The notes beneath the pieces are model-generated. The model worked only from the letters and a program-made list of their open reading frames with translations. It ran no database searches and was not told where the DNA came from. This document shows, piece after piece, positions 17,547-36,688 of a stretch of DNA of 64,000 nucleotides. Source of the stretch: Candidatus Woesearchaeota archaeon (GTDB lineage Archaea > Nanobdellota > Nanobdellia > SCGC-AAA011-G17 > PNOQ01). A program made the translations under genes and the position numbers. Position 1 is the first letter of the stretch, and the number at the start of each line of letters is the position of its first letter. The stretch lies in the NCBI GenBank assembly GCA_964344655.1, contig CAYFOF010000001.1, positions 3,907-67,906 of the forward strand, given 5' to 3'.

Positions 17547-18617
17547 TTATCCTCCTATACTATCCTGTTTCAATTGATCTAAAAGTTGCTCGGCTTGTTT
17601 TACTGATTCTTCTGAGTAACCGCTTTGATCTGTCGTTTCTTTTGATTTTTGATCTTCCTTCGGAGCCTCTTCTGTTTTTGGCTCTTCAGTTTTTTCTTCG
17701 GCTTTAGGTTCTTCTTTTGGAACTTCTTCTTGTTTCGGTTCTTCTGATTTCTCTTCAGCCTTTGGTTCTTCCTTTGGAGTTTCTTCTGCTTTAGGTTCTT
17801 CTTCGGTTTTTTCTTCAGATTTCTCTTCAGCAGGAGTTTCATCTTCTGGAAGTTTTGATTCTATTGAAAGTTTTTCTCTTTCAGCTTTTTGTAACAAGAT
17901 TTCAACAGTTTCTTTTGTTGGATATGCTACGAAAACTGCAAGATTGAGTGCTTCAGAAGCTGCTACTTTGATTCTATCTAGGTATTCAGCTTCGTCAATA
18001 GATAATATTTCGCTATCAAATACGTCTCCGTTTTGATAAATTGCTTTTATGTTTAATCCGATTTCCATCGGTTCGATTCCGAATTTAGCAAGCATATCGG
18101 ATTGTGCTTGAGAAATTTCTTCATCTTTTTTCACAATTGTTGCTTCTTCTTTTATTACAACTTTTCCATCTTCAATTGCGGCCTTAATTCCCGCAGCACC
18201 TAGTTCTCCAATAATTGGACCCGGTGCAAATGGAGTTGGACCCTCAGGTACTTTCAAATCTTTTGGAGCTATTTGTCCAGGTTTAGCTGCAGTAGAGGAT
18301 TTATTTTTATCCAATGTTTTTGCTATTTTGAAAGCATCTTGAGTTGTGAATATTAATGCTGGCATTGAGTTTTCTAGATATTTTTCTAGTTTTTCTATGC
18401 CTTTCTTTTTTTCTTTTACTTTTTCCAAAGCTAATTTTATTAATGATTTCTTAGCTACAATTACATTAAGATTATCTCTTAACTTGTGTTTTATTTTTTG
18501 GAATTGAGCAGAAGGTAAATTTGTTAGGTCTATAATTCCAATTATGTTTTCTGATTCAAGTTTTTTAATTAACTCTGCAACTACTTGCTTTTTCTTGTCA
18601 GAAACGTGGGCTTTCAT
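17547..18617 (-). CDS. rpl10: ribosomal protein uL10 (P0) with long EEPKAEE-repeat C-terminal extension
   Basis: N-terminal uL10 domain, stalk operon context. Confidence 0.85.
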
Positions 18618-19372: not shown

Positions 19373-19882
19373 TTACTGTTTAGAAAGTTCGTATACATAC
19401 AATGTTTCATAAGGTATTTTTTCTTCTGAAAGTTTTTTAGTTTTAAAGCCTTTTAGTATGATTTTCATGTTTGGGGTTAGAGAAGAGAATAAAAGTAATA
19501 TTTTTCCGTTTTCTTCTAGGTGATTTTTGGCTTGTTTTAGAAATTTTATTATTATTTCATTGCCTTTTTTTCCGCCAGTTGTAGCTAGTTTGGAATCTTC
19601 GGGTTCTCTTTTATCTTCTGGGAGATAAGGAGGATTGAATATTATTAAATCAAATTTTCCTTTTACTTTTTCAAATAAATTAGACCGGAGTGTTTTTATA
19701 TTTTTTAGGTTTAAACATTCTTTATTAATATCTACTGCTAAAACGTCTGCACCTTGTTCTTTTGCAGTTATTGCTTGGATCCCAGATCCTGTTCCCATGT
19801 CTAGAACTTTCATACCTTTTTTTGCATAAATCTTTACTTGTTTTTGGAGTAAGTAAGAATCTTCAGCTGGTTGGTAAATCAT
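19373..19882 (-). CDS. HemK/Mtq2-like N5-glutamine methyltransferase
   Basis: SAM motif LDMGTGSG and catalytic NPPY. Confidence 0.6.
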   Translation of the reverse strand: MIYQPAEDSYLLQKQVKIYAKKGMKVLDMGTGSGIQAITAKEQGADVLAVDINKECLNLKNIKTLRSNLFEKVKGKFDLIIFNPPYLPEDKREPEDSKLATTGGKKGNEIIIKFLKQAKNHLEENGKILLLFSSLTPNMKIILKGFKTKKLSEEKIPYETLYVYELSKQ

Positions 19883-20139: not shown

Positions 20140-20503
20140 CTAAAGAGGGATTAGATTGTATTTCAGAACTTCTTCTCTTTAGAGTTTCCCAAAGGGTATC
20201 AATATCATCTTCTGGTAGAACTAATTTTTCTAATTCCCTTATTTCAATATCTGTTTTTTTTACAATTGTTTCTACGATATGGTATTGCGCCTCAGGTAAA
20301 AGTTCTTTTAAGGGAGAAAGTATTTGTTCTTTTAATTCCCTTATCCTTATTTGTTGAGCATAATATTGTTCAAACCCCCGCTCTATCTCTGTTCTATTTT
20401 TAGGATCATCCATATAGTCTGATCCTTTTGTTTGTCTTATTTCAGAAATATACATCGCACGATGATAGATTCTATCTCCTTCTACTATTTTTAATTTTGT
20501 CAT
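20129..20503 (-). CDS. hypothetical protein
   Basis: ORF in an operon. Confidence 0.3.
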   Translation of the reverse strand: MTKLKIVEGDRIYHRAMYISEIRQTKGSDYMDDPKNRTEIERGFEQYYAQQIRIRELKEQILSPLKELLPEAQYHIVETIVKKTDIEIRELEKLVLPEDDIDTLWETLKRRSSEIQSNPSLDGR

Positions 20504-20535
20504 TTTATCATAGATCCATTCAAATTTATAAAGAT

Positions 20536-21003
20536 TTATTTAATTTCCTTGAAGTAATCTTCTACTCTTTCTAAAATATTTTTGAGATAGAATTCCTTTA
20601 TTTGTTTTTTGAATATTGTGTGAAGTTCTTCGAACTCTGCAATTCTGTATTGGTTTCTAATATTTTCTACTAAATAAATATCTCTTAGCCTTTTTAGTTG
20701 TCTTCTAACATTTGAAGATGCAATTCCTTTTAGTGGAAGTTTTTGTTTTTTTCTTGAAGCAATTACTTTTTCTTTTATTTCTTCAGAATTCATTAAAAGT
20801 TGTTCATTTTTGTTGTCCATTAATACTTGTAAAATATCTACTATTATATCTCTAGAATCTCCGGGTTGTAATAATCCAATTGATAAACAAATTTTTCTTG
20901 TTAAATCTCTTTGAGAATTTGTTGAAGGTTTTTCATACCTTCTTAATGTTATTTCTGATAGTGGTGTATCTTTTGAAATAGTTTTAGCCATGCCAATAAT
21001 CAT
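20536..21003 (-). CDS. hypothetical protein, possible winged-helix regulator; true start probably Met5 (MAKTISK)
   Basis: TATA box is 9 nt upstream of the annotated ATG, so a leaderless start at the second ATG is likely; helix-rich basic protein. Confidence 0.35.
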   Translation of the reverse strand: MIIGMAKTISKDTPLSEITLRRYEKPSTNSQRDLTRKICLSIGLLQPGDSRDIIVDILQVLMDNKNEQLLMNSEEIKEKVIASRKKQKLPLKGIASSNVRRQLKRLRDIYLVENIRNQYRIAEFEELHTIFKKQIKEFYLKNILERVEDYFKEIK

Positions 21004-21012
21004 TAATCAATG

Positions 21013-21052
21013 TTTATAAATTGTCTCTCGGTCTTTGGCAAGCTGGCAAGCT
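21013..21052 (-). promoter_or_regulatory. promoter (TATA TTTATAAA) with upstream 19-bp GC-rich tandem-octamer element AGCTTGCCAGCTTGCCAAA (minus-strand sense)
   Basis: Element lies exactly 13 bp upstream of the TATA; an identical element with identical spacing occurs at 23574..23613 on the opposite strand. Confidence 0.4.
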
Positions 21053-21299
21053 ATCTTTTTCTTTTTAGTATATTTCTTAAGATATTTAAAGAGGCACCAT
21101 CTAATATTTCTTCCAAACCTGTTCCTTCAAAATTTCCTTGTTTTAGAAATGTTCTATCTAAATTTGTTGGATATTTAGAAATAACATCATAATTTCTTGA
21201 AAGTACGCCTTCCTCTACAATTCCTTTTTGTGAAAGAATTTCATGGTATTCCGTTGCTAATCTTTTGTTTGACATCATTTTATAATCTACTCCTATCAC
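21051..21299 (-). CDS. hypothetical protein
   Basis: ORF. Confidence 0.3.
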   Translation of the reverse strand: MIGVDYKMMSNKRLATEYHEILSQKGIVEEGVLSRNYDVISKYPTNLDRTFLKQGNFEGTGLEEILDGASLNILRNILKRKR

Positions 21300-22062
21300 C
21301 TTCTGAATATCTTTCTACTAATCCCCAAAAATCAAATGGATTTTCTTTTATTACTTTTAATGATCCATATGGGCAAAGTAAGTATCCTTCTTTTGGAGGA
21401 ATGTATCCTTCTGTGTTTCCAAACACCACACGTACTGGACGATTTCCAGAGCTTCCTATTTCAGTCACTATTCCTTTAATTCCTGGAGGAGCATAGAAAG
21501 AATACTCATAGCTTTCTTTTGTTTGTTCTACTAACCTTCCAGGACTTGCATTAGATAATATCTCTACTTGATTCGTTACCTTTTTTCTTCCAAATCTTCC
21601 ACTAGGTAAAAGAACAAGATTATTTCCATTATGATTTAGTTCTTTTTCTGTTGGATATTCATCGCATGCTTCCCATCTTACACGAAGAGGAAAATCCAAA
21701 TCTAAATTTACCCTTATAATAACTCCCTTCATTCCTGGTTTTAAAAAATAATCATAACCAGATGAAGGTTCAGAATTTATGAATTCTACAAAATCATATT
21801 GTTTGATATGTCTAGCAACATGCTCTGCTCCAACAATCTCAAAATTACCTTGCACATATACTCTACTTATAAAATCTTGTACTCCTTCTCTAGAAAAATC
21901 TCTCATTTCTTGAGGAACATTGTAATCAAAAAGTTCATCATTTTCTTGCAAATGGCTTAAAACTTTCTCTAATGTTTTCCCCGGAATTCTTTTTGTGGTT
22001 ACTGGGACTATTCTATCTCCCTGTACTATTCCTAATTCTGGTGTTTTCCTCTGATCTTCCAT
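21280..22062 (-). CDS. hypothetical protein with an internal duplicated PGxKG(I/V) module
   Basis: ORF; repeated KPGMKGVIIRV / PPGIKGIVTEI segments. Confidence 0.35.
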   Translation of the reverse strand: MEDQRKTPELGIVQGDRIVPVTTKRIPGKTLEKVLSHLQENDELFDYNVPQEMRDFSREGVQDFISRVYVQGNFEIVGAEHVARHIKQYDFVEFINSEPSSGYDYFLKPGMKGVIIRVNLDLDFPLRVRWEACDEYPTEKELNHNGNNLVLLPSGRFGRKKVTNQVEILSNASPGRLVEQTKESYEYSFYAPPGIKGIVTEIGSSGNRPVRVVFGNTEGYIPPKEGYLLCPYGSLKVIKENPFDFWGLVERYSEGDRSRL

Positions 22063-22094
22063 ATTTTTGTAAAAAATATTCCTTTTATAAAGCT

Positions 22095-23138
22095 TTAGAA
22101 TTCGGTTAATTTCTTAGAATAATTTACAATTGAGGATTTTCCAGGAACTTCAAGAACATCTAACATGTGATTTTTCTTTAATTCATCTATTTTTCTGTGG
22201 AATGTTCTATAAGAAAACTTATCTTCAACCATTGAATGTAATTCTTTTACGGTTTTTCCGGAATTTTGTTTTACTAAATCTAGGATTGTTTGTTCATCAT
22301 CTCCAAATTCTTGGGAGTTTTTTATTTTGAAACCTTCTAATTTAGATAATGCTTTGTTTGCGTGTTCTAGATTTATCTTTCTGGAAGCTTTCATTTCTGC
22401 TGAATTTCCAGCTTCACGAAGTAAGAATAATCCTGAACGGATATCTCCAATTTGTATTGTTTTGCTTATTATTGCTTTTAATGCATCGTGATCCCAAACG
22501 TCTGGAACGAAAGCGTATTTTATTCTTTCTTTCATAATTCCTGTAGTTTCTTCTGCGTTGTATTCGTTAAATTCTAGAAGTTCTGGCATTAATCTTGATT
22601 TTACCCTATCATCTAATTGAGTTAGCCATTCTTTGTTGTTGGCAATTAAGATTAATGATTTTTTTAGTAAATCTTCGCAGAATGAGTATAAAATATCTAC
22701 TTCTCTAACTTTATCTACTTCGTCTAAAAATAAAACTACACTTCTTTTGTTTAGTTCTTTTGCAACTATATCCATTAATTCATCTGTTCTTTTGTTTTGT
22801 GTCCATTTGTATCCAACTTGATTGCAGATTTCTAAAAGTATTTTGTAGCTAGAGTCTTTTTTCCAACAATTTATGTAAATTGCTTTGACATCTCCTGTTT
22901 TTTCTTCTAATTCTCTTTTTACATATAGTGCAGCTAGTGTTTTTCCAATTCCTGGAGCACCTTGAATGAATAGATTTCTTCCAGTTTTGTTATTTAGTAA
23001 GGGTGCAATGCATTCTGCAATGAATTGTTGTTGATTTTCTCGGTATGGAATTTGTTTTGGGACGTAATCATAATCTAATGCAATTTCATCTAAAAATAAA
23101 GATTCGTTTTCGTGAAGAATGTTATCAAATAATCCCAT
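22095..23138 (-). CDS. cdc6: Orc1/Cdc6 replication initiator (AAA+ ATPase plus winged helix)
   Basis: Walker A GAPGIGKT, Walker B LFLDEVD, C-terminal winged-helix region. Confidence 0.85.
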   Translation of the reverse strand: MGLFDNILHENESLFLDEIALDYDYVPKQIPYRENQQQFIAECIAPLLNNKTGRNLFIQGAPGIGKTLAALYVKRELEEKTGDVKAIYINCWKKDSSYKILLEICNQVGYKWTQNKRTDELMDIVAKELNKRSVVLFLDEVDKVREVDILYSFCEDLLKKSLILIANNKEWLTQLDDRVKSRLMPELLEFNEYNAEETTGIMKERIKYAFVPDVWDHDALKAIISKTIQIGDIRSGLFLLREAGNSAEMKASRKINLEHANKALSKLEGFKIKNSQEFGDDEQTILDLVKQNSGKTVKELHSMVEDKFSYRTFHRKIDELKKNHMLDVLEVPGKSSIVNYSKKLTEF

Positions 23139-23173
23139 AAAAATGATAAAAAGAAAGAAAGATATAAAACTTT

Positions 23174-23527
23174 CTAAAGTTCTTTAAGTCCTTCATCTGT
23201 GTTGGTTACAAACCTAAAACCTACTCCGGACTTCATAAGAGCAGCAATTAAAGCCATATGTTCTTTTCCAGTTCCAGAAACAAAGTTAACTGCAACTTCA
23301 TCTTTTACTTTTTCTTTTAGAATTTTAGCTATTTCATCTCTTAGTTCTTCTTCTGAAGCTGAAGAGTTTACAACTATTAATTCTGTGTTTTCTGCTGCTG
23401 TAAATTTTTCTTTTCCGAAATCGTTAGTTAGTAAATAGACTTTATCCCAGCTTTCTGCGTTAATTAGTCCAGTTACTTGTCCCCAAGTTCCTTTTCCTGT
23501 TGATAGGAATGCTATTAAATCTGTCAT
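23174..23527 (-). CDS. hypothetical protein
   Basis: ORF. Confidence 0.35.
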   Translation of the reverse strand: MTDLIAFLSTGKGTWGQVTGLINAESWDKVYLLTNDFGKEKFTAAENTELIVVNSSASEEELRDEIAKILKEKVKDEVAVNFVSGTGKEHMALIAALMKSGVGFRFVTNTDEGLKEL

Positions 23528-23573
23528 TTTATGTTTGCTTTTTATTTGGTGTATTTAAGTTTTGTTGTTTTGA

Positions 23574-23613
23574 AGCTTGCCAGCTTGCCAAACGTGCGGG
23601 TGAGATATATAAA
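23574..23613 (+). promoter_or_regulatory. promoter (TATA TATATAAA) with upstream 19-bp element AGCTTGCCAGCTTGCCAAA, second copy on the plus strand
   Basis: Same 19-mer and same 13-bp spacing to TATA as the site at 21013..21052. Confidence 0.4.
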
Positions 23614-23656
23614 CAATTTTTCTCATAATTAGTATACATCATGGAGGTGATGCTTA

Positions 23657-23758
23657 ATGGTTAAATACTTACATTGGGAAGATTTTGTTGAAGAAGAGTT
23701 GGAGATCAAGTTTTGGAAGTTAATCCATAATAGTGCAGTGTGTCATTTGAAAATCTAA
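23657..23758 (+). CDS. small ORF (33 aa) preceded by a GGAGGTGA Shine-Dalgarno-like sequence
   Basis: SD 6 nt upstream of ATG; about 44 nt downstream of the operator-bearing promoter. Confidence 0.25.
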   Translation: MVKYLHWEDFVEEELEIKFWKLIHNSAVCHLKI

Positions 23759-23759
23759 A

Positions 23760-23867
23760 ATGGAAGAATACAACTATTATGAGAAAGAATGTATAATTCA
23801 GTTGGAAGAGGATGGAGATATAGATCCTTATGATGCTGGGTTTATGCATGGGTTTTTGGAAGCATAA
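23760..23867 (+). CDS. small ORF (35 aa) starting one nt after the preceding small ORF stop
   Basis: TAAAATG junction suggests translational coupling; acidic peptide. Confidence 0.2.
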   Translation: MEEYNYYEKECIIQLEEDGDIDPYDAGFMHGFLEA

Positions 23868-23901
23868 TAAGTTTTAAAAAACCTAAAAATTAACTTTTTT
23901 T

Positions 23902-24486
23902 ATGAATATATTAGCATTTACGGATCCGCACTTTGATGAGAAGATTAGTTCTAAATTGATTTCTAGAGCAAAGAAGGCAGATGTTGTGGTTTGTGCAGGA
24001 GATTTTACTAATTTTGGAAGGAATTTTGATAAGATAATAAAAGATTTTGATAAGTTTGAAAAGCCAACAATAATTGTTCCTGGGAATCATGAAGAAGGAG
24101 AGGATTTTAAGTTAATAACAAATAAGCAAGTTAAGTTTTTACATAAGAAAAGTATTGTTATTGGAGATTATTTATTTTTTGGATATGGATATGGGGGTTT
24201 TTCTGAAAAGTATAAAGACTTAGAGAAGTTAATTCCTAAGTTAAAAGAAAAAGCTAAAGGAAAGAAAGTTATTTTTGTTACACATCCACCAATTTATGGA
24301 ACATCTACAGATTTCGTTGATTGGGCAGGACATGTTGGAAATAAATCTGCTTTGAAATTAATAAAAGAAATAAAACCAATGTTAGTTATTTGTGGACATA
24401 TTGAAGAAAATTTTGGACAAATTGATAATGTTGGTAAAACTATAATAATTAATCCAGGAGATAAAGGAAAAATTCTGGAAGTTTAA
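23902..24486 (+). CDS. calcineurin-like metallophosphoesterase
   Basis: DPHFD, GDFTNFG and GNHE metallophosphatase motifs. Confidence 0.7.
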   Translation: MNILAFTDPHFDEKISSKLISRAKKADVVVCAGDFTNFGRNFDKIIKDFDKFEKPTIIVPGNHEEGEDFKLITNKQVKFLHKKSIVIGDYLFFGYGYGGFSEKYKDLEKLIPKLKEKAKGKKVIFVTHPPIYGTSTDFVDWAGHVGNKSALKLIKEIKPMLVICGHIEENFGQIDNVGKTIIINPGDKGKILEV

Positions 24487-36359: not shown

Positions 36360-36397
36360 CCAAAACATTTATATATTACATATGATATACATATCAT

Positions 36398-36688
36398 ATG
36401 ATAGATTTAACATATGTAAATTTTTTTAGGACATTAGACAATGATACTAGATTGGGAATTGTTTTGTGTCTGAAAAATGGATCTAAAAATGTTAGTCAAT
36501 TATCTAAAGAATTAAAGATGGAACAGAGCAGGATAAGTCATAATTTGCAATGTTTAGAAAAAAATGGTTTTGTTACGGTAAAACAAGATGGAAAACAAAG
36601 GATATATTCTTTGAATAGAGATACTATTGAGCCAATTCTTGTTGCTGTAAAAAAACATATGTCAAAATATAAAATAAATTCATGCTAA
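36398..36688 (+). CDS. ArsR/SmtB-family HTH transcriptional regulator
   Basis: Winged HTH with the typical FRTLDNDTRLGIVLCL...SQLSKEL pattern. Confidence 0.6.
   Translation: MIDLTYVNFFRTLDNDTRLGIVLCLKNGSKNVSQLSKELKMEQSRISHNLQCLEKNGFVTVKQDGKQRIYSLNRDTIEPILVAVKKHMSKYKINSC

Follow-up and report, generated by a model that had tools for sequence, protein, structure and literature searches.

Among the described elements closest to the one reported here are the sites of archaeal upstream activators, namely Ptr2 in Methanocaldococcus, TFB-RF1 in Pyrococcus and the GvpE UAS of haloarchaea, which are short sequences upstream of the BRE and TATA box, whose position matters and which serve few promoters. 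Characterised archaeal repressor sites usually overlap the BRE, the TATA box or the start site, whereas sites upstream of the BRE, such as those of Ptr2 and TFB-RF1, usually activate. In bacteria, one cis-motif joins recA with nucleases and helicases in both the SOS box/LexA system and the mycobacterial PafBC-dependent RecA-NDp promoters, the PafBC motif acting positively and at a fixed distance. The ORB and mini-ORB elements of archaea are inverted repeats beside orc1/cdc6, the ORB core being a dyad. Finally, in Sulfolobales a DNA-damage-response element, 5'-ANTTTC-3', is bound by the Orc1/Cdc6 paralog Orc1-2, which activates; this hexamer lies within a 20-bp consensus, published as AATAGTTTCRGWDTACTCWS (PMC6061795).

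The element described here (the box) shares with the archaeal upstream activator sites its position ahead of the BRE and TATA box. It differs from them in being a 16-bp head-to-tail repeat of 8-bp period rather than a palindrome, in a spacing that is invariant in all cases seen and in being found only in uncultivated DPANN archaea. Like the Sulfolobales element, it is a promoter-proximal motif of a putatively co-regulated gene set, and an orc1/cdc6 gene adjoins two of its copies in the window, that is, the whole 64-kb stretch of DNA that was analysed. However, the two are unrelated in sequence, with the tandem octamer GCTTGCCAGCTTGCCA failing to fit the ANTTTC-containing Orc1-2 consensus, and the Sulfolobus regulon (ups, ced, tfb3) is not centred on radA and nucleases. 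The LexA and PafBC motifs belong to a different domain of life and differ from the box in core promoter (-10/-35 as against TATA/BRE) and in sequence. The inverted copies beside orc1/cdc6 in the window recall ORB and mini-ORB, but the arrangement, distribution and TATA register of the box do not fit them. We consider it likely, with a probability of about 0.75, that the box is a putative transcription-factor binding site or upstream promoter element of a Woesearchaeota-type (DPANN) lineage and that it defines a recombination- and nuclease-rich regulon.

Two inverted copies of a tandem octamer flank an orc1/cdc6 gene

The exact 19-mer AGCTTGCCAGCTTGCCAAA occurs twice in the 64-kb window, at 21034-21052 on the minus strand and at 23574-23592 on the plus strand, as an earlier sequence-only reading of this DNA had reported; a third copy is absent from the 64 kb, even allowing 3 mismatches. 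That reading held a chance origin to be very unlikely, and shuffling bears this out, with 0.01 matches expected and two or more copies in 0 of 100 shuffles. The conserved unit is the 16-mer, which is (GCTTGCCA)x2, head-to-tail, with a TTGCCA core; the 19-mer adds three bases that are only weakly conserved at other sites. Computed from base composition at 31 % GC, the chance frequency of the 16-mer is ~1e-11 per position, and within the window the octamer is restricted to four positions, all inside the two boxes. In each arm the TATA box follows the 19-mer after 13 nt and the 16-bp core after 15 nt. Purine-rich 13-nt spacers (10/13 and 9/13 purines), the TATA boxes and the outward direction of both promoters, away from the four enclosed ORFs, are likewise as first described. 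The copies lie 2521 nt apart, and beyond the box the TATA box alone is alike between the arms. The features of the locus are as follows.

19373-19882, minus strand: MTS/NPPY methyltransferase gene, which together with a 124-aa ORF and an 86-aa ORF makes up the left operon downstream of the 151-aa gene
20536..20991, minus strand: gene for a 151-aa conserved winged-helix-like protein
21013..21020, minus strand: left TATA box TTTATAAA, promoter of the 151-aa/124-aa/86-aa/methyltransferase operon
21021..21035, minus strand: left 15-nt spacer AAGACCGAGAGACAA, read against the column profile of 23 distinct sites
21036..21051, minus strand: left 16-bp box, two octamers (19-mer, 21034-21052)
21051..23527, minus strand: enclosed genes (82-aa ORF, 260-aa ORF, orc1/cdc6 at 22095-23138, 117-aa gene), context outside the element
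23552..23559, minus strand: TATA-like sequence CTTAAATA, possibly the divergent TATA box of the 117-aa-cdc6 operon, placed back-to-back with the right copy
23575..23590, plus strand: right 16-bp box (19-mer, 23574-23592)
23591..23605, plus strand: right 15-nt spacer AACGTGCGGGTGAGA
23606..23613, plus strand: right TATA box TATATAAA, promoter of the micro-ORF/phosphoesterase operon
23643..24486, plus strand: right transcription unit, predicted to be driven by the right copy
23643-23650, plus strand: Shine-Dalgarno sequence GGAGGTGA preceding the micro-ORF
23657-23758, plus strand: conserved 33-aa micro-ORF
23760-23867, plus strand: conserved 35-aa ORF
23902-24486, plus strand: gene for a 194-aa calcineurin-like (YfcE-type) metallophosphoesterase

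The 82-aa ORF ends in a TAG codon that overlaps the 5' edge of the left box, and the spacer of this box opens with a weakly conserved extension of the AAC/AC type and closes with a purine-rich, BRE-like end. The sequence-only reading had placed an ATG 9-27 nt after each TATA box, and the starts needed correction on both sides. The gene that it took to encode 155 aa almost certainly starts at the Met at 20991, its more than 5000 homologs measuring 151 aa; this ATG lies 21 nt after the TATA box, and the mRNA would therefore be leaderless. On the right, the ATG at 23641 falls within the leader and the micro-ORF starts at 23657. The ATG at 23527 follows the possible divergent TATA-like box by 24 nt. 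Within the window, no LAGLIDADG, radA, 81-aa, Mrr or helicase homolog was found, and no TTGYCA half-site lies 15 nt from any other TATA box.

The box keeps a fixed register to the TATA box

A complete metagenome scan with the exact 16-mer was combined with loci fetched through their proteins, and contigs below 36 % GC were counted. Among the 44 low-GC occurrences (36 distinct), a TATA box of the form T[AT]T[AT]TA[AT]A stands at exactly +15 in 29, the off-promoter fraction being an estimate from a scan whose filter (8 A/T within 0-30 nt, offset 15 not favoured) would miss copies lacking an A/T run within 30 nt. All 29 TATA-linked occurrences, representing 23 distinct promoters, are at +15, where a background of 0.0016 per position would predict ~0.06, and none of the 44 has its TATA box only at another offset. 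At the loci obtained blind to the motif (the window, L121, L124 and L128), 6/6 exact copies are in register. The box also has one orientation relative to the TATA box: divergent TATA boxes on its reverse side lie at a variable 11-22 nt from the distal edge, and hence that side has no fixed register. At nine leaderless genes the ATG follows the TATA box by 21-23 nt (offset 44-46 from the box), while leadered genes carry the same Shine-Dalgarno sequence as the micro-ORF. In the column profile of the 23 sites, conservation does not stop at the box but continues on its 3' side (~AACAC) in the direction of the BRE. Variation within the box is under-sampled because the exact 16-mer was the search key; the few known variants all come from protein-fetched loci or second sites.

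In the lineage, copies occur at a density of ~1-2 per 10-60 kb. Many copies at random positions, which the sequence-only reading had named as evidence for a generic dispersed repeat, were not encountered: extra copies exist, and none in the lineage is randomly placed relative to a TATA box. The box thus does not behave as a MITE- or REP-like dispersed repeat, with many copies unrelated to gene starts. Matches in contigs above ~36 % GC are bacterial (GCTTGCCA)n microsatellites or chance matches in coding sequence, and are unrelated to the promoter element. When a genome collection was scanned with the bare 16-mer, the matches listed included GC-rich bacterial chance matches, with L068 being the sole informative one.

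Conservation at orthologous promoters and the status of the cdc6 segment

The comparison with related genomes that had been proposed finds the box at orthologous promoters on both sides. At the micro-ORF promoter, 7 lineages with phosphoesterases 66-90 % identical to that of the window share an unchanged box, 15-nt spacing and TATA box, while the sequences of spacer and flanks vary; in L121, L124, L157, L185, L218 and L233 the box is followed by the micro-ORF and phosphoesterase as a conserved pair. The left box is present at the orthologous 151-aa promoter in L121, L128 and L233, in the last as a 1-mismatch variant; at this promoter it is confined to the window's own clade and missing in relatives at 72-76 % identity. 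The more distant relative L249 has TCTTGTCAGCTTGTCA+15+TATATAAA, in which both octamers have undergone the same C-to-T change, from TTGCCA to TTGTCA. In L160 and L233 the TATA-proximal unit is intact where the distal unit degenerates. The sequence of the box, its register and orientation, and its conservation at orthologous sites are direct observations, as are the identities of the box-linked genes given below.

The same relatives bear on whether the pair delimits the cdc6 segment. Perfect 19-bp inverted repeats bracket a block of variable gene content: the 260-aa, 82-aa, 175-aa zinc-finger and 174-aa genes vary between relatives, the 260-aa ORF being specific to this window, and the block of the 117-aa gene and cdc6 is inverted between clades. 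Such an arrangement could be that of terminal or boundary repeats of an inserted cdc6 element, as the sequence-only reading had offered as an alternative, or of recombination sites mainly inverting the segment. We find this hardly credible, since all relatives examined have the 117-aa gene and cdc6 in the same syntenic position (phosphoesterase ... 151-aa gene, methyltransferase, L1/L10/P1), whether they carry two box copies, one or only a diverged one. Moreover, no integrase or transposase was found between the two copies, an empty site was seen in no relative examined, and the segment does not come and go as a whole unit with mobility genes. The inversion between L124 and L121 leaves the 174/175-aa gene where it is, so that the breakpoints do not fall at the copies, and the box occurs singly at many other, unrelated loci.

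It is quite improbable, too, that the inverted copies are Orc1/Cdc6 binding sites (ORB) marking an origin around cdc6. They do flank orc1/cdc6, the cumulative GC skew reaches a local minimum and the genes change orientation near 22-23 kb, and Orc1 paralogs are also capable of acting at promoters (PMC6061795). However, 2.5 kb and four genes separate the copies, no intergenic space around the cdc6 operon exceeds 129 nt, and we could find neither an AT-rich unwinding region flanked by repeat clusters nor any other repeat cluster. Further, relatives have one copy (L124) or a diverged copy alone (L130, L249) near cdc6, and the box is not restricted to origin regions: the same box stands at radA, LAGLIDADG and Mrr promoters, and no cdc6 was seen in the surrounding DNA examined there. 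The strict TATA register also points to transcription, and the box is a direct repeat, in contrast to the dyad of the ORB core.

Box-linked genes are rich in recombination and nuclease functions

In the window and related low-GC Woesearchaeota-type contigs, the genes downstream of the box comprise an 81-86-aa gene with the radA operon, six LAGLIDADG genes, an Mrr-type nuclease, the phosphoesterase operon and the 151-aa gene, with domain matches to LAGLIDADG_3, Mrr_cat and DEAD/Helicase_C. A helicase gene is probably also box-linked; this link (L144/L151) and that of L169 are loose because over 85 nt separate the TATA box from the ATG, to which a second TATA-like sequence lies closer. The proposal of the sequence-only reading that the pair co-regulates the two units flanking the cdc6 segment stands insofar as these share a TATA-fixed promoter element, and is to be amended in that the element is not private to them, being shared with promoters of radA, LAGLIDADG and Mrr-type genes. 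Taken together, the genes are suggestive of a programme tied to recombination, DNA damage or replication, a suggestion based on about a dozen promoter classes; the regulon size is an estimate from the 64-kb window and metagenome contigs.

The prominence of LAGLIDADG genes raises the prospect of a promoter cassette spread by these mobile homing-endonuclease genes, with no dedicated regulator, which by chance came to lie beside the two units of the window. Six of the box-linked genes are of this type, a half motif accompanies a seventh ORF that is weakly LAGLIDADG-like, and several of these genes border on tRNA genes, a typical landing site. We nevertheless judge such a spread improbable. The six proteins are only 24-32 % identical and the spacers unrelated, yet the 16-mer and its spacing are exact, which requires purifying selection on the box, as opposed to recent copying. 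The box is also kept across lineages at orthologous promoters of core genes (the phosphoesterase and radA operons), and no copy was present in 2.9 million viral contigs. As a separate observation on tRNA genes, an intron-containing tRNA in L068 was detected by Rfam and overlooked by ARAGORN.

A model for the box and candidate binding proteins

The box lies beside promoters at a constrained distance and in one orientation, is conserved at orthologous sites and recurs at several unlinked promoters, all three of which are features of a promoter element. That a protein binds it, in which direction this acts and in response to what signal, we infer from the arrangement of the sequence. The box is 15 bp upstream of the TATA box and ~9 bp upstream of the BRE, which would place it at roughly -61 to -46 from the predicted transcription start. 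Each octamer would be contacted by one subunit or domain of a sequence-specific DNA-binding protein, and the bound protein would contact the TBP/TFB-promoter complex from this fixed position and control its assembly. One such putative protein would switch all box-bearing promoters together, which in the window would be those of the micro-ORF/35-aa/phosphoesterase operon on the right and the 151-aa/methyltransferase operon on the left. A point against this model is that, at a period of 8 bp, the two units face different sides of the helix, an uncommon arrangement among tandem-binding activators.

Stimulation appears likelier than repression because the site lies entirely ahead of the BRE and TATA box, overlapping neither. 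The same element acting with the opposite sign, as the operator of a LexA- or DdrO-like repressor released on a signal, is unlikely, although there are points in its favour: the recA-containing DNA-damage regulons known from bacteria are under repressor control, and the conservation 3' of the box towards the BRE means that a bound oligomer could reach the latter. However, the box itself ends 15 bp before the TATA box and overlaps none of BRE, TATA box and start site. Orc1-2, moreover, activates from its promoter motif (PMC6061795).

The candidates for a box-binding protein are speculative and include Orc1/Cdc6, the 151-aa protein and the 81-aa protein. The 151-aa protein is probably a winged-helix protein, as judged from a weak fit in fold searches (E about 0.05-0.2); sequence searches of PDB and NCBIfam were empty. 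The sequence-only reading had favoured it (as a 155-aa protein) as the regulator, and we found nothing to tie it specifically to the box: its family, with more than 5000 members, is distributed much more widely than the motif, and the relatives at 72-76 % identity lack the box at the promoter of its gene. The 175-aa zinc-finger gene beside the box in L121 was dropped as a candidate because it is absent from the window and an unrelated gene takes its place in L124. The 81-aa protein has no match in Pfam, PDB or NCBIfam; its confident structure model gives weak fold matches (Pur-alpha, Sub1/PC4, COMM), and it may, speculatively, be a small, lineage-restricted Pur-alpha/PC4-like protein encoded just upstream of radA. 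A more specific and rather doubtful scenario would cast the box as the response element of a Woesearchaeota regulon for recombination and DNA damage (or for S phase). The neighbouring Orc1/Cdc6 might read it, combining the roles of initiator and transcription regulator in the way Orc1-2 does in Sulfolobales, or the Pur-alpha/PC4-like protein might do so and thereby autoregulate the operon that it shares with radA. Several unrelated LAGLIDADG homing-endonuclease genes would then be wired to the box and expressed precisely at times when the RadA repair machinery on which they depend is induced.

Implications for DPANN archaea

DPANN archaea are largely uncultivated, with tiny genomes and few recognisable regulators, and to our knowledge almost nothing is known of their gene regulation; our literature search found neither the 16-mer nor a paper on such DPANN promoter motifs. 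The box is not a new kind of biology and is an unusually clean new example of the known kind of upstream promoter element. Its invariant TATA position makes it a concrete handle, both as bait for the regulator and for a simple in vitro transcription design. It predicts a co-regulated set comprising radA, nucleases and the two units flanking a replication-initiator gene, and suggests that selfish LAGLIDADG endonuclease genes share the recombination control of their host.

A paired promoter box at the orc1/cdc6 locus

The 19-mer AGCTTGCCAGCTTGCCAAA occurs exactly twice in the window (GC ~31 %), with no third copy in its 64 kb when 3 mismatches are allowed; 0.01 matches are expected by chance, and two copies arose in 0/100 dinucleotide-preserving shuffles. 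The octamer GCTTGCCA is confined to four positions, all within these copies. The identical pair, its fixed spacing to TATA and the outward-facing promoters proposed in the sequence-only reading are thus confirmed, and comparison of the arms detected no likeness beyond repeat and TATA box.

Features of the locus
21034-21052, minus: left 19-mer; its 16-bp core, hereafter the box, at 21036-21051
21013-21020, minus: left TATA box TTTATAAA, 13 nt after the 19-mer
20536-20991, minus: 151-aa gene, methyltransferase gene downstream
between the copies: 82-aa ORF, 260-aa ORF, orc1/cdc6 (22095-23138), 117-aa gene; both promoters face away from these four
23574-23592, plus: right 19-mer; box at 23575-23590
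23606-23613, plus: right TATA box TATATAAA, 13 nt after the 19-mer
23657-23867: 33-aa micro-ORF and 35-aa ORF, ahead of a phosphoesterase gene (to 24486)

The gene at the left promoter, earlier read as 155 aa, stands, but its start does not: since its family of >5000 proteins is 151 aa long, the start is placed at Met 20991, 21 nt past the TATA box, predicting a leaderless mRNA. On the right, the ATG previously noted after the TATA box exists but lies within the leader, and the micro-ORF begins at 23657 behind the Shine-Dalgarno sequence GGAGGTGA. Relatives conserve the amino-acid sequences of the 33-aa and 35-aa ORFs (W-[ED]-[ED]-F-[VI]-E-E...F-W motif), so both are probably real small proteins.

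Three further features of the window were observed. The N-termini of a 124-aa ORF (20469-20506) and the 260-aa ORF (22010-22047) are 79 % alike over 38 nt of DNA (KIVEGDRI versus GIVQGDRI), pointing to a partial duplication or to a domain common to both. Degenerate 57-nt repeats in the gene for ribosomal P0 (L10), at 17547-18617, encode a C-terminal extension that is long, repetitive and rich in Lys/Glu/Pro. A CATATG-rich imperfect palindrome of 44 nt, with 28-nt arms that are 86 % complementary, lies at 36376-36419.

Conservation at orthologous promoters

The comparison with related genomes (contigs and metagenome stretches bearing L numbers) showed the box to be conserved at orthologous promoters. 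Seven lineages whose phosphoesterases are 66-90 % identical to that of the window share an unchanged 16-mer, 15-nt spacing and TATATAAA at the micro-ORF promoter, although the sequences of the spacer and of the flanks on either side vary. At ~42 % phosphoesterase identity only variants are left, namely TCTTGTCAGCTTGTCA+15+TATATAAA in L249, where both units share the same C-to-T change, and TTGTCATTGTCA+15+TATATAAA in L130. In L160 and L233, where the box has degenerated, the TATA-proximal octamer is kept. L121, whose 151-aa protein is 89 % identical, has GCTTGCCAGCTTGCCA, 15 nt and TATA at both promoters with diverged spacers, and the box also precedes the 151-aa gene in L128 and, with one mismatch (GCTTGACA), in L233. 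Because relatives at 72-76 % identity retain the TATA box of the 151-aa promoter without the box, the left copy is derived in the window's own clade. Of the two promoters, that of the micro-ORF is the older member.

A lineage-wide element in register with TATA

Among the matches listed, scanning the genome collection for the 16-mer alone gave mostly chance matches in GC-rich bacteria, together with the archaeal MAG contig L068, where the box, 15 nt and TTTATAAA precede a leaderless LAGLIDADG gene. A complete metagenome scan, requiring eight A/T within 0-30 nt after the 16-mer, a filter that enriches AT-rich genomes and favours no offset, returned 117 stretches, which were pooled with the window, L068, L121, L124 and L128. 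Contigs below 36 % GC in this pool hold 44 occurrences (36 distinct), 29 of them with a TATA box precisely 15 nt on; these are 23 distinct promoters versus ~0.06 expected from a TATA-pattern background of 0.0016 per position. Offsets 13 and 17 yield only secondary matches inside the same sites. L243 is likewise in register with a weaker TATA-type box (CTTTTTAA), as are 6/6 exact copies in loci picked by protein, i.e., blind to the motif. The register holds for one orientation only, with divergent-side TATA boxes at 11, 11, 13, 15 or 22 nt (window included). Weak conservation (about AACAC) follows the box 3', and then a purine-rich BRE-like stretch. No copy was found in the viral contigs searched.

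In contigs of higher GC, the 16-mer matches have nothing to do with the archaeal box: they fall in bacterial (GCTTGCCA)n microsatellites or in coding DNA. In five bacterial-looking contigs (L138, L145, L206, L215, L220; GC 0.39-0.46), 'TTGTTATAAT' is immediately followed by a tandem array of 2-8 GCTTGCCA units, with one and the same conserved sequence downstream; the number of units differs among contigs, which resembles a promoter microsatellite of variable length.

The sequence-only reading's local operator thus holds as a fixed-spacing promoter element but not as one private to two units: the same box recurs elsewhere in the lineage, pointing to a lineage-wide promoter element.

Genes behind the box

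Promoter classes carrying the box
(i) micro-ORF/35-aa/phosphoesterase operon; many lineages
(ii) 151-aa gene; window's clade
(iii) 81-86-aa gene, radA immediately after; L143, L167, L212, L228, L242
(iv) six LAGLIDADG_3 genes; L068, L147, L188, L222, L234, L243; in addition, a weakly LAGLIDADG-like ORF behind a half box; L160
(v) Mrr_cat nuclease gene; L160
(vi) looser, ATG >85 nt from TATA: DEAD/Helicase_C gene (L144/L151); ORF (L169)

In nine leaderless genes the ATG lies 44-46 nt past the box, i.e., 21-23 nt past TATA. The window itself contains none of the radA/81-aa, LAGLIDADG, Mrr or helicase members. A reading in which homing-endonuclease genes merely carry a promoter cassette around fails, as conservation is limited to the box itself and orthologous core-gene promoters retain it; the six LAGLIDADG_3 proteins are mutually just 24-32 % identical. 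tRNA genes adjoin several box-linked LAGLIDADG/Mrr genes (L068 924-1028, L243 4417-4507, L222 7446-7518, L147 6589-6661, L160 1590-1679); in L068 and L243, tRNA, box, TATA and LAGLIDADG gene follow in that order on one strand, and the L068 tRNA, overlooked by ARAGORN, contains an intron.

The family of the 81-aa protein comprises only 81 clusters, all from Woesearchaeota/Nanoarchaeia (81-94 aa), with no Pfam family, and in more distant relatives (L254-L259) the gene's end overlaps the radA start. Its model (pLDDT 90; four strands and one helix, beta4-alpha) gives weak best matches to Pur-alpha, Sub1/PC4 and COMM domains, a set that includes single-stranded nucleic-acid binders. These matches are consistent with a RadA partner, and the protein may be an accessory single-strand binder of RadA.

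Neither an island boundary nor a canonical origin

The named homologs of the window's proteins come from Candidatus Woesearchaeota/Nanoarchaeia MAGs, and relatives' loci, retrieved via the 151-aa protein, share the order metallophosphoesterase, micro-ORFs, [117-aa gene, cdc6], 151-aa gene, methyltransferase, L1/L10/P1. The 117-cdc6 pair is found in every relative retaining this neighbourhood, with varying orientation and surrounding extra genes. In the window, L121 and L233 it shares the direction of the 151-aa gene; in L124, L129, L130 and L249 the two are divergent. The alternative that the repeats bound an inserted cdc6-bearing element is ruled out because the pair is syntenic and neither integrase nor transposase lies between them.

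Extra genes at the locus
260-aa: window only
82-aa: window and L233
175-aa zinc-finger: L121
174-aa, unrelated: L124
HTH_5 and TrkA_N: L249

Insertions are concentrated between 117-cdc6 and the micro-ORF promoter, a hot spot that holds unrelated genes in different lineages (260-aa, zinc-finger, 174-aa, HTH_5 and TrkA_N). The 117-cdc6 block (21051-23527) is flipped relative to its neighbours between clades (versus L121, L124, L130, L233 and L249), an inversion that the two inverted boxes possibly helped.

Inverted copies beside cdc6, near a GC-skew minimum at 22-23 kb, could also mark a replication origin (ORB). This reading fails on the TATA register, on a distribution of the box that does not suit an origin, on copies 2.5 kb apart with intergenic spaces of <=129 nt, and on the lack of a repeat cluster at the cdc6 locus. 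The cumulative skew drops from ~7 kb to this local minimum, which coincides with a gene-orientation switch, and climbs to ~41 kb; the pattern is compatible with a nearby origin and may be mere coding-strand bias. With 347 aa, Orc1/Cdc6 is a short and divergent initiator: its scores against all matched NCBIfam ORC1 models stay under the curated cut-offs, and a Pfam Cdc6 C-terminal winged-helix domain was not detected.

A predicted upstream activator site

The head-to-tail repeat stays identical while other promoter bases and the downstream proteins have diverged almost completely; its distance and orientation to TATA are fixed, both units changed in concert in one lineage, and the set of promoters is small. 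We infer that a sequence-specific protein would bind the box, which lies at about -61 to -46, with each unit taking one subunit or domain, and that the protein would touch the TBP/TFB complex from there. Archaeal regulators whose sites lie upstream of BRE/TATA generally tend to activate. As the box sits upstream of these elements without overlap, activation appears more likely than repression, with a repressor operator as a live variant. A winged helix is probable in the 151-aa protein, whose model (pLDDT 81) finds weak Foldseek matches among Fur, MarR, PadR and Sso10a; the protein was rejected as the specific regulator of the box, its family being far wider in distribution than the box.

To our knowledge, gene regulation in this lineage is essentially unexplored. 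The 16-mer has no occurrence in the searchable literature, and we regard it as an unusually clean promoter box of an already known type, working like known archaeal upstream activator sites. Its gene set resembles the bacterial SOS and PafBC regulons and the DNA-damage regulon of the Sulfolobales ANTTTC/Orc1-2 system, in which Orc1-2 activates from a promoter motif (PMC6061795); the box has no sequence in common with any of these systems. Together, across about a dozen promoter classes, radA, the nucleases, the helicase and the units beside the initiator gene suggest a recombination, DNA-damage or replication-linked programme.
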